NCBI GenBank assembly: GCA_964016885.1
Contig: OZ024751.1
Span: 42,904,001 to 42,968,000, forward strand
DNA: 64,000 nt
Reading direction: 5' to 3'
DNA from: Eledone cirrhosa
Taxonomy: Eukaryota
Positions 25,094 through 44,482 of this stretch are shown piece by piece (the first letter of the stretch is position 1; every line of letters begins with the position of its first letter). A model generated the notes under the pieces. The model worked only from the letters and a program-made list of their open reading frames with translations. It made no database searches and was not told the DNA's origin. The translations under genes and the position numbers were made by a program.

Positions 25094-25104
25094 AATAATA
25101 ATAA

Positions 25105-25985
25105 TAATTGTTTCTACTTTTGGCACAAGGCCAGCAATTACCCAGTACATTACTGGTACTTTATTTTATCGACCCCGTAAGGATGAAAGGCAAATAATAA
25201 TAATACAGGTTGATCGACTGGCACCTATGCAAAGTAAACAATTTACCACATTCTGAGAAGTGGTGTGAGCATAAGCCAGAGTCGGTGATAGAAAACAATC
25301 AGGTAAAGGTGCTATGGGATCTTAGGATACAGATGGACATGAAACTGGAACACTTCAAAAGGCATGCTTGTTGGGAACACCAAGAACCTTCCGATACTTC
25401 CTGAATGTCTGAGGCTGCAGGTAGCGACTTGATATTAATTTCAACAAACTTTCCAGTTAAATAACTGTTTCTACTTTAGGCACAAGGCCAGCAATTACCC
25501 AGTGCATTACTGGTACTTTATTTTATCGACCCCGTAAGGATGAAAGGCAAATAATAATAATACAGGTTGATCGACTGGCACCTATGCAAAGTAAACAATT
25601 TACCACATTCTGAGAAGTGGTGTGAGCATAAGCCAGAGTCGGTGATAGAAAACAATCAGGTAAAGGTGCTATGGGATCTTAGGATACAGATGGACATGAA
25701 ACTGGAACACTTCAAAAGGCATGCTTGTTGGGAACACCAAGAACCTTCCGATACTTCCTGAATGTCTGAGGCTGCAGGTAGCGACTTGATATTAATTTCA
25801 ACAAACTTTCCAGTTAAATAACTGTTTCTACTTTAGGCACAAGGCCAGCAATTACCCAGTGCATTACTGGTACTTTATTTTATCGACCCCGTAAGGATGA
25901 AAGGCAAAGTTAACCTCGGCGGGATTTGAGGTTGACTTTGCCTTTAACTTTCCATTTAAATAACATCAATGACTGAGACACAAAT
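25105..25985. mobile_element. 357-bp tandem duplication of (SINE fragment on - plus internally deleted Dong-like LINE fragment on +)
   Basis: Identical ORFs at 25210 and 25567 (LPHSEKWCEHKPESVIENNQVKVLWDLRIQ); Dong 3' end taacatcaatgactgagac at ~25960. Confidence 0.85.
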
Positions 25986-38401: not shown

Positions 38402-38773
38402 AAATGGGGAGAAGAATACTGCAGGTAGCACATGGATAACATGTTATAAAATGAGTCCCTCATCAGTGATTTGCCAACGATCATAGATATTTTATTGCAT
38501 TAAAAATCATATACCTCACGTTGGTGCAATAATAACTAAATTAAGTTATTAGGACAATTAAAACGCGTAAAGCGAGTGAGACAAGTAAACAACAAAGAGA
38601 AAAGCTAACCGTAGATAGGAAGAGGCACAAGCTACATATAGTTATTCTGTCAGCGTAAGCTGGGTGAATATATGAGCGCGTAGAAAATAGACCTTTCGAG
38701 ATGAATTCAATGTAAGAAAGAAGGAAATTGTTTTCGTCGCGAACGGGTATATATATATATATATATATATATA

Positions 38774-41700
38774 TGAATATAGACATAGAATATTCGAAAA
38801 TATTCTGTATGTTTATAATAAACATTTTGAAGACCTAATCGCTATAGAATAGAATACGTCACGTATTACAATTAGATTCTCGATAAAAGCAAGGGAAGTA
38901 ATCTACGCGTTTCATTCTTGTTAGAAATCATCAGGACTACATATCCAGTGCTTTTATCGAGAATGACACAGCTAGAGACTTATAGAATACTTAGCTGTGT
39001 ACAGGAACTGGTTTGAAAGAGCGGTTGCCGGTCCGGCAGAAATTAGAAATTGGAATAAATGCTCTGAAATAGCGATATATATGTGAATATAGACATAGAA
39101 TATTCGAAAATATTCTGTATGTTTATAATAAACATTTTGAAGACCTAATCGCTATAGAATAGAATACGTCACGTATTACAATTAGATTCTCGATAAAAGC
39201 AAGGGAAGTAATCTACGCGTTTCATTCTTGTTAGAAATCATCAGGACTACATATCCAGTGCTTTTATCGAGAATGACACAGCTAGAGACTTATAGAATAC
39301 TTAGCTGTGTACAGGAACTGGTTTGAAAGAGCGGTTGCCGGTCCGGCAAAATGTTTATTATAAACATACAGAATATTTTCGAATATTCTATGTCTATATT
39401 CACATATATATCGCTATTTCAGAGCATTTATTCCAATTTCTAATTTCTGCCGGACCGGCAACCGCTCTTTCAAACCAGTTCCTGTACACAGCTAAGTATT
39501 CTATAAGTCTCTAGCTGTGTCATTCTCGATAAAAGCACTGGATATGTAGTCCTGATGATTTCTAACAAGAATGAAACGCGTAGATTACTTCCCTTGCTTT
39601 TATCGAGAATCTAATTGTAATACGTGACGTATTCTATTCTATAGCGATTAGGTCTTCAAAATGTTTATTATAAACATACAGAATATTTTCGAATATTCTA
39701 TGTCTATATTCACATATATATCGCTATTTCAGAGCATTTATTCCAATTTCTAATTTCTGCCGGACCGGCAACCGCTCTTTCAAACCAGTTCCTGTACACA
39801 GCTAAGTATTCTATAAGTCTCTAGCTGTGTCATTCTCGATAAAAGCACTGGATATGTAGTCCTGATGATTTCTAACAAGAATGAAACGCGTAGATTACTT
39901 CCCTTGCTTTTATCGAGAATCTAATTGTAATACGTGACGTATTCTATTCTATAGCGATTAGGTCTTCAAAATGTTTATTATAAACATACAGAATATTTTC
40001 GAATATTCTATGTCTATATTCACATATATATCGCTATTTCAGAGCATTTATTCCAATTTCTAATTTCTGCCGGACCGGCAACCGCTCTTTCAAACCAGTT
40101 CCTGTACACAGCTAAGTATTCTATAAGTCTCTAGCTGTGTCATTCTCGATAAAAGCACTGGATATGTAGTCCTGATGATTTCTAACAAGAATGAAACGCG
40201 TAGATTACTTCCCTTGCTTTTATCGAGAATCTAATTGTAATACGTGACGTATTCTATTCTATAGCGATTAGGTCTTCAAAATGTTTATTATAAACATACA
40301 GAATATTTTCGAATATTCTATGTCTATATTCACATATATATCGCTATTTCAGAGCATTTATTCCAATTTCTAATTTCTGCCGGACCGGCAACCGCTCTTT
40401 CAAACCAGTTCCTGTACACAGCTAAGTATTCTATAAGTCTCTAGCTGTGTCATTCTCGATAAAAGCACTGGATATGTAGTCCTGATGATTTCTAACAAGA
40501 ATGAAACGCGTAGATTACTTCCCTTGCTTTTATCGAGAATCTAATTGTAATACGTGACGTATTCTATTCTATAGCGATTAGGTCTTCAAAATGTTTATTA
40601 TAAACATACAGAATATTTTCGAATATTCTATGTCTATATTCACATATATATCGCTATTTCAGAGCATTTATTCCAATTTCTAATTTCTGCCGGACCGGCA
40701 ACCGCTCTTTCAAACCAGTTCCTGTACACAGCTAAGTATTCTATAAGTCTCTAGCTGTGTCATTCTCGATAAAAGCACTGGATATGTAGTCCTGATGATT
40801 TCTAACAAGAATGAAACGCGTAGATTACTTCCCTTGCTTTTATCGAGAATCTAATTGTAATACGTGACGTATTCTATTCTATAGCGATTAGGTCTTCAAA
40901 ATGTTTATTATAAACATACAGAATATTTTCGAATATTCTATGTCTATATTCACATATATATCGCTATTTCAGAGCATTTATTCCAATTTCTAATTTCTGC
41001 CGGACCGGCAACCGCTCTTTCAAACCAGTTCCTGTACACAGCTAAGTATTCTATAAGTCTCTAGCTGTGTCATTCTCGATAAAAGCACTGGATATGTAGT
41101 CCTGATGATTTCTAACAAGAATGAAACGCGTAGATTACTTCCCTTGCTTTTATCGAGAATCTAATTGTAATACGTGACGTATTCTATTCTATAGCGATTA
41201 GGTCTTCAAAATGTTTATTATAAACATACAGAATATTTTCGAATATTCTATGTCTATATTCACATATATATCGCTATTTCAGAGCATTTATTCCAATTTC
41301 TAATTTCTGCCGGACCGGCAACCGCTCTTTCAAACCAGTTCCTGTACACAGCTAAGTATTCTATAAGTCTCTAGCTGTGTCATTCTCGATAAAAGCACTG
41401 GATATGTAGTCCTGATGATTTCTAACAAGAATGAAACGCGTAGATTACTTCCCTTGCTTTTATCGAGAATCTAATTGTAATACGTGACGTATTCTATTCT
41501 ATAGCGATTAGGTCTTCAAAATGTTTATTATAAACATACAGAATATTTTCGAATATTCTATGTCTATATTCACATATATATCGCTATTTCAGAGCATTTA
41601 TTCCAATTTCTAATTTCTGCCGGACCGGCAACCGCTCTTTCAAACCAGTTCCTGTACACAGCTAAGTATTCTATAAGTCTCTAGCTGTGTCATTCTCGAT

Positions 41701-41911
41701 AAAAGCACTGGATATGTAGTCCTGATGATTTCTAACAAGAATGAAACGCGTAGATTACTTCCCTTGCTTTTATCGAGAATCTAATTGTAATACGTGACGT
41801 ATTCTATTCTATAGCGATTAGGTCTTCAAAATGTTTATTATAAACATACAGAATATTTTCGAATATTCTATGTCTATATTCACATATATATCGCTATTTC
41901 AGAGCATTTAT

Positions 41912-41917
<6 letters not shown>
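38774..41917 (+). mobile_element. hammerhead retrozyme-like tandem array, 310-bp monomer: ~1.9 inverted units (38774-39348) plus ~8.3 direct units (39347-41917), in (TA)n
   Basis: Exact 310-bp period, no unit differences seen by eye, one HHR per unit, inverted 5' segment, 35-nt 3' tail. Confidence 0.92.
39546..39588 (+). ncRNA. type I hammerhead ribozyme (repeats every 310 bp to 41716-41758; minus-strand copies at 38898-38940 and 39208-39250)
   Basis: gtagtc CTGATGA t-ttct-aaca-agaa-t GAAA cgcg TA gattac; stem I extended by 16-bp attctcgataaaagca/tgcttttatcgagaat after an internal loop; palindromic ACGCGT stem III; GUA cut after 39582. Confidence 0.9.
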
Positions 41918-41958
<41 letters not shown>

Positions 41959-41959
<1 letters not shown>

Positions 41960-42115
41960 CGAAGGAAATATGGTAAGGAACCAGATGGACCATAACGCAC
42001 CAAAGTACTCAATACTTAGGGTAGTAGAGTGGGTAATAGGAACGAGTAGGACCCCGACGGCTGAGCTCAAGCCGTTTCGACGGCTTGAGCTCAGCCGTCG
42101 GGGTCCTACTCGTTC
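41959..42115 (-). mobile_element. family A fold-back element
   Basis: Tail plus palindrome; stem II collapsed through the shared acggct. Confidence 0.8.
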
Positions 42116-42277
42116 ATATATATATATATATATATATATGAAGTATATATATGTATGTATATATTATCATTATTATTGTTAAGTCCAAGTTGGGGTCTGT
42201 TACTATGGAGTTTTTCTAGCGTATTCACAGGGTCACCAGACAAGGCTCTAGATAGATAGATAGATCGATAGAGAGAG

Positions 42278-44217: not shown

Positions 44218-44482
44218 CAGGATGGATTTAGTTCGGAACTGGTTAGACCATTACTCAACAGAGTACTCGATATTTGGAGTAGTAGAGTATGGTTATATTA
44301 GAAAGACTCGGAGCCCGACGGCTGAGCTCTTGCCATTTCAACAGCTATATATATATATATTATAATGAGTCGGGACCTGAGTTCTTGTCGTTGCAATAGC
44401 AAATTCAAAACTCTGGAACTAGCTGTTGAAATGGCAAGAGCTCAGCCGTCGGGCTCCGATTCTTTCTAATATAACCATATTC
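44218..44482 (-). mobile_element. diverged family A fold-back element
   Basis: gagtactcgata..gtagtagagt tail; arms ggagcccgacggctgagctcttgccatttcaacagcta / tagctgttgaaatggcaagagctcagccgtcgggctcc. Confidence 0.7.

Follow-up and report, generated by a model that had tools for sequence, protein, structure and literature searches.

Metazoan non-LTR retrozymes are tandem arrays of non-coding, low-GC units of 150–450 bp that carry a type I hammerhead and are bordered by target site duplications (TSDs) of more than 4 bp, and the accessible text of their description names Penelope-like elements (PLEs) as a strong candidate mobiliser, with RNA circles as the template (PMC7229834). Circles as templates for more-than-unit copying have also been proposed (PMC4209133), and a recent preprint, as far as its available text goes, treats animal retrozymes as non-autonomous PLE derivatives (Li, Clavereau and Pollet 2026, bioRxiv 10.64898/2026.07.22.740005). 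Insertions of EN+ PLEs are described, in the accessible parts of three papers, as having 8–10 bp TSDs, AT-rich or (TA)n targets, a hammerhead upstream of the tail and two reverse transcriptase (RT) start sites, and multicopy non-autonomous derivatives are noted for Chlamys in the same group of papers (PMC8557442, PMC3846280, PMC11167929). The PLE traits listed in one of them are an inverted 5'-truncated copy, a 30–40 bp one-sided tail and microsatellite targets (PMC8557442). In another, in vitro work shows both strands being cut at AT-rich sites and extended by a PLE protein, which is predicted to be a dimer, and two internal RT start sites mark the limits of the tail (PMC11167929).

The window, a 64,000-nt stretch of the Eledone cirrhosa genome, holds a young insertion of a non-coding repeat family with a hammerhead motif, one among more than a thousand. 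Its array consists of two opposed arms of the same 310-nt unit (position 1 is 39347) and is flanked by (TA)n on both sides, with remnants of the target at 38748–38773 on the left and, as (AT)n, at 41918–41958 on the right. The inverted arm (38774–39348, minus strand), which at 575 nt is the longest exact reverse-complement match to the unit, runs in the RNA sense from unit position 102 round to a short 3' end at 56, i.e., 1.9 units. The direct arm (39347–41917, plus strand) comprises 2571 nt, or 8.3 identical units matched exactly throughout, and stops at unit position 91, the long 3' end being at 89–91. The arms meet head to head in a 2-nt overlap, CA (39347–39348), directly after TGCCGGTCCGGCA (39336–39348), a TGCCGG-T-CCGGCA palindrome. 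An earlier, sequence-only reading had described a reverse-complemented stretch at 38774–39348 joined through CA after the hairpin, and exact matching bears this out in full; the single inverted 5' copy that it saw there is indeed inverted but is a second multi-unit arm. Similarly, the 35 nt by which it had the direct arm run further (91 − 56; 41883–41917, plus strand, unit positions 57–91, at the long end only) are exact, but A56 and A90–T91, the latter being the last 2 nt of this tail, could equally belong to the (TA)n target, which puts the true offset in the window at 33–36 nt.

The right (AT)n remnant is shared with a separate small element (41959–42115), which consists of a near-perfect palindrome (42040–42115) and a 59–80 nt extension, has TA at both ends and looks like another PLE-type two-armed mini-insertion. 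The same sequence adjoins PLE ends at four other loci (L126, L175, L221 and L247), and a copy that is 75–80% alike lies at 44226–44480. An Rfam match to Plastid-psbJ-2 (42042–42182) covers this palindrome and (TA)n and was judged spurious. Two further young tandem repeats in the window, at 8465–10047 (period about 500, with internal (TA)n) and at 25103–25908 (period 357, 99% identical), have no similarity to the 310-nt unit.

The unit has a GC content of 34%, its longest stop-to-stop frame is 59 aa, and when folded as a circle it reaches −67.8 kcal/mol, compared with −46.3 ± 4.6 kcal/mol for 100 shuffles. Eight copies of a type I hammerhead motif occur at 310-nt spacing in the direct arm, starting with 39546–39588 (plus strand), and two in the inverted arm (38898–38940 and 39208–39250, minus strand). 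The motif is made up of stem I (GTAGTC/GATTAC), CTGATGA at 39552, stem II (TTCT/AGAA over a U-U pair) and GAAA-CGCG-TA, with a predicted cut after 39582, i.e., after unit position 236. It is enclosed by a 16-bp stem (39522–39537 with 39595–39610, plus strand) that covaries across sister families: when the window unit and six units of sister families are aligned, two-sided changes affect 23 of the 89 predicted pairs, mostly in this stem and the hammerhead helices, and the hammerhead core alternates between C3-G8 and U3-A8. Among 885 copies matched by flanking pattern, 882 keep the core CUGANGA and UA. The base of stem II is U-U in 638 of these copies and A-U in 247, unlike the G-C (G10.1-C11.1) of the family consensus (PMC4209133), and Rfam called no hammerhead in the window at its gathering score. 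As judged from sequence alone, then, the unit is not a canonical hammerhead, having neither the G10.1-C11.1 pair nor an Rfam-level match. In Xenopus, eight of nine retrozyme dimers failed to cleave in vitro, according to the accessible text of the preprint (bioRxiv 10.64898/2026.07.22.740005). The element otherwise resembles the described non-LTR retrozymes in unit size, base composition, lack of coding capacity, type I core and TSDs of more than 4 bp (PMC7229834, accessible text), and, the canonical stem II pair excepted, it probably works like one.

Exact patterns gave 16,637 matches in the 3.0-Gb genome for a 25-mer of the tail and 1,029 for the long end followed by TA; 12 of the first 16 arrays on one contig, C1, carry the latter pattern, which puts the family at roughly 1,400 arrays. 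A further pattern count, 1,208, includes internal C57T units and does not count ends. We compared 96 arrays, all from C1, in two sets: the first 16 arrays, not chosen on their ends (15 complete, 1 cut by a locus edge or gap), and 80 consecutive long-end matches among the 1,029, chosen on one end (75 complete, 5 cut in the same way). The head-to-head layout is present in 13 of the 15 and 71 of the 75 complete arrays, the inversion being absent in 6 of 90, and each of the 84 complete inverted arrays has one short and one long end, at unit positions 52–65 and 89–92, respectively. Since all 13 inverted arrays that were not selected on ends show these two ends again, with the long end always at 89–92, those of the window are not a product of chance. 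The sequence-only reading had named random ends and absence of inversion in other copies as what would count against it; its claim survived this test across the 90 complete arrays. Its prediction of constant termini held for the long end, but the offset is not strict, the short end lying at position 56 in 46 of 84 arrays, at 65 in 27 (C57 is kept, and the unit's own ATATATAT then merges with the target), at 52–54 in 7 and at 58–61 in 4. The apparent offset is 35 in most complete inverted arrays, within the 30–40 bp of a one-sided PLE tail, and 26–39 over all 84.

TA-rich DNA adjoins 166 of the 168 outer ends. One array in a non-TA target (L037) has its long end at A89 and a duplicated flank of 13–14 nt, and flanks of 10–12 nt are duplicated in L039, L046, L054 and L068 (L037, L046 and L068 by script, L039 and L054 by eye). 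Short TSDs in AT-rich DNA are thus legible in five arrays, the (TA)n around the other 79 of 84, window included, being too uniform to read. From the distribution of short ends and the A89 end of L037, the tail amounts to ~33–34 templated bases in most copies and is shorter in a third. Which arm is the longer varies (in 48 of 84 arrays it is the long-ended one, p = 0.15), and in 69 of 84 each arm is more than one unit long.

We consider it likely, with a probability of about 0.8, that the array is a young insertion of a non-coding hammerhead-motif repeat, reverse transcribed by a borrowed PLE RT/GIY-YIG protein that used both 3' ends at a staggered (TA)n cut as primers. The endonuclease would cut both strands of (TA)n about 11–14 nt apart, and each 3' end would prime a cDNA on the proposed repeat RNA, one at unit position 89 and the other at about 55–57. 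Both cDNAs would traverse many units, stop at scattered places and be joined at their ends by a few bases of microhomology or by short inserts, so that the arms stand head to head, only one of them has the tail and a short piece of target is duplicated. In most cases the template would probably be one monomer copied round and round, i.e., a circle arising from hammerhead cleavage and ligation, and sometimes an uncut linear multimer. Of this account, the geometry, the constant outer ends, the scatter of the junctions and the homogeneity are read from the sequences, and the enzyme, the RNA, its cleavage and its circular form belong to the proposed part. The insertions are like those of EN+ PLEs in their inverted truncated copy, tail at one end, short TSD and AT-rich target (PMC8557442, PMC3846280 and PMC11167929, accessible parts), and unlike them in that the window family has no ORF, both arms are multimers and the junctions are not palindromic. 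They carry the PLE footprint; the element itself, to go by its sequence, is not an autonomous PLE, and there is no RT plus GIY-YIG ORF within the window's array.

The genome contains 10,597 GIY-YIG candidates and RT plus GIY-YIG ORFs of up to 938 aa. Our partner search drew on 30 GIY-YIG loci, 20 long-ORF loci, 20 loci of a related hammerhead family and 30 sister-family loci, and reached about 70 of the 10,597 candidates. Four coding PLE families among the examined loci end in (TA)n at two sites, which are 68, 65, 38 and 58 nt apart. Seven PLE ends were compared with the window family: Neptune-like A, B and C, Hydra-like, Poseidon-like, family D and L068 (clade names by motif resemblance, not by tree). 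None of the seven shares the tail or the start region, for which no match rose above shuffles, and the one match that beat all 200 shuffles is 28 nt of hammerhead core and stem II in the pLTR of the Hydra-like element. The autonomous PLE with a common tail that the sequence-only reading expected was therefore not among them, and we infer the enzyme from the footprint; the proposal of mobilisation by a PLE RT and endonuclease is sustained by that footprint and by the same two-end geometry of coding PLEs in (TA)n, but not by a matched enzyme. Two candidate partners were set aside, Neptune-like C, with a TTCA(CA) end ahead of (TA)n, a similar stem II and a palindromic loop III, and Neptune-like B, which has a 38-nt offset; neither scored above shuffles.

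Sister retrozyme families that are 60–80% alike end at homologous sites, with an offset of 35 in 12 of 14. Compared with the window unit, their units are 67–84% alike over positions 1–124 and 43–60% around the hammerhead, and such a peak of likeness around the two start sites is as expected if a PLE protein reads that region.

Several other families were seen along the way. The sister families (314–322 nt, 4,102 exact matches; L041:5382–5695, L117:363–680, L243:1501–1818, L251:1501–1817 and L256:1692–2013) have different hammerheads, some with U3-A8, and mostly short, older arrays. In the Hydra-like coding PLE (L209, L210, L215 and L224), the pLTR hammerhead shares core and stem II with the window unit, a 26-mer has 9,561 exact copies and the ORF begins just past the long end; a Pfam search of three Hydra-like ORFs found no domain. 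A Neptune-like family (L087, L088, L090, L098, L107 and L111) has a U3-A8 hammerhead with U-U at the base of stem II, a tail that itself contains a (TA)n tract and, as in the window family, the short end TTCA(CA). Other hammerhead tandem families of ~460–500 nt with a GAAA-CTAG loop III are nested in the same (TA)n tracts (L035, L038, L081, L224 and L243).

As for the template, 167 of the 178 arms cross the predicted cut site, so it would be a circle or an uncut multimer and not a cut linear monomer. The arrays are homogeneous, with 109 single-copy changes in 285,160 bases; 45 of them carry 21 haplotypes and differ from each other by about 3 changes. Both arms carry one haplotype in 28 of 30 arrays, and the arms differ at a site in L058 and L143 (in L058, one arm alone changes from A to G at 202, in its inner part); it seems that the two arms usually share a source, either a single RNA or a single donor. 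Among array-wide changes, only A>G at unit positions 202, 256 and 185 is seen on more than one background (five, three and two, respectively), and all three adenines are in predicted A-U pairs with a 5' U. With the window's haplotype as the reference for polarity, A>G and T>C origins number 15 versus 4 (p = 0.003), and the bias is reversed among single-copy changes, at 10 versus 17 (Fisher p = 0.007). The preference of ADAR gives ground for reading the recurrent A>G changes as A-to-I editing, which is what we infer, and these G-U-tolerant changes could also recur through selection on RNA structure. Repeated copying of one monomer would be the simplest way to put an edit into all units of both arms. 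These patterns incline us, at a little better than even odds, towards a circle as the usual template. We put forward the full scheme more tentatively, at somewhat less than even odds: a PLE protein pair would cut (TA)n and hold one 310-nt hammerhead-made RNA circle at two sites ~34 nt apart for double rolling-circle reverse transcription, A-to-I edits of the circle being fixed in all units of both arms and uncut multimers serving as a minor template.

The same PLE enzyme and two-ended priming could instead have worked always on a long uncut linear transcript, with unit number growing by DNA duplication in a few master arrays. In L084, two outer units of one haplotype are followed by another in both arms, and L067 is likewise an in-register mosaic; the likeliest reading of both is that the two RTs copied a single multimeric RNA, and they speak for a linear template, as does the non-canonical stem II. 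Repeated variant patterns inside L047, L048 and L071 show that DNA-level duplication occurs, and the available text of the in vitro study reports that HHR cleavage was dispensable for insertion, with no reads ending at the cut site (PMC11167929). However, linear copying can neither raise unit number nor fix a new change in every unit, and the same A>G array-wide on five backgrounds (in up to 14 of 14 copies, L051) would call for a separately amplified master each time. Moreover, a minor variant is shared in register in only 2 of 88 two-arm arrays, against 71 variants confined to one arm. We regard an exclusively linear template as rather unlikely.

In sequencing runs X1, X3 and X6, coded as three other organisms, the unit assembled as a single closed 340-nt contig at a depth of 10–15 that is identical to the window haplotype on 39560–39869, possibly from trace host DNA or RNA. 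Such closed contigs are ambiguous, as a tandem array collapses the same way. Their coverage of the Hydra-like pLTR is low, and nothing follows from a lack of coverage.

Where the two proposed cDNAs meet bears on how the inversion arose. The 89 junctions are all different, and the 178 arm starts are spread over the whole unit, mildly unevenly (p = 0.03), with 4 near the predicted hammerhead cut site (6.3 expected). Of 59 junctions without extra bases, 36 overlap by at least 2 nt, against 18% expected (p = 4e-13); the other 30 of 89 contain extra bases, several matching nearby unit sequence. Scattered junctions of this kind are in line with two cDNAs that were primed independently and then joined at their ends, and not with the palindrome-based self-priming modelled, in the text available, in PMC3846280. 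That fold-back model, which here would act at the TGCCGG hairpin, draws on palindromes reported at inverted junctions in the same source, and three arrays are in keeping with it, the window and L038 having their junctions at unit position 102 and L036 being joined through the 16-bp stem. Yet the two arm starts are within 10 nt of each other in only 7 of 89 junctions, which is chance level (p = 0.40), the second fixed outer end is left unexplained, and only 4 of the 178 arm starts fall at the palindrome, counted over unit positions 100–116, where 9.8 are expected. In the whole genome, the unit is left immediately after the palindrome at only 32 places, of which some are point variants, and the hairpin, next to which the sequence-only reading had placed the window's junction, is not a preferred turning point in the family. 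For this repeat family, fold-back self-priming is largely refuted, and we think it very improbable.

L1-style twin priming also leaves an inversion with microhomology and a target duplication. A LINE RT could on this ground have mobilised the repeat, and LINE-like ORFs are common in the examined loci. But the arrays lack poly(A) and share no tail with LINEs, the site of the second start, ~34 nt away from the first, is nearly fixed, the two arms have content in common, and GIY-YIG-coding elements of the same genome show the same geometry, which together make a LINE origin highly unlikely. Perfect unit identity and long palindromes, which are hard to assemble, might suggest a DNA-level satellite or an assembly fold-back artefact, an explanation to which we give hardly any credence in view of the two defined ends, the lack of any repeat among 89 junctions, the array-specific haplotypes and the short-read contigs of run X2, which may be the source sample, that stop in loose (TA)n at the short end (39721).

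The link between retrozymes and PLEs has thus already been proposed in print (PMC7229834, accessible text), and the insertion-level evidence is, within the literature searched, the new part. The available text of that paper does not contain the terms "inverted" or "target site" and describes no opposed multi-unit arms with PLE ends. Li et al. rest their case on co-occurrence and pLTR homology in Xenopus and favour local amplification, whereas ours rests on insertion geometry, with no pLTR homology beyond the 28-nt hammerhead match found among the seven ends; "tail" and "target site" do not occur in the text available of their preprint, and "inverted" only in a reference title. We found no description of two-armed retrozyme arrays with PLE ends or fixed edits in open-access main texts; subscription papers or supplements could hold them.

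The enzyme that spreads animal retrozymes and the use of circles as transposition template have been proposed, not demonstrated (PMC7229834, PMC4209133 and Li et al. 2026, as far as their accessible texts show), and how PLEs make insertions with an inverted copy and a tail is called open in PMC8557442. A very young family of ~1,400 insertions gives exact RT start sites, the cut stagger and junction statistics, and its junction data argue against fold-back self-priming. The 310-nt unit is a substrate on which the proposed mechanism could be put to a direct in vitro test with the PLE assay described in the accessible text of PMC11167929.
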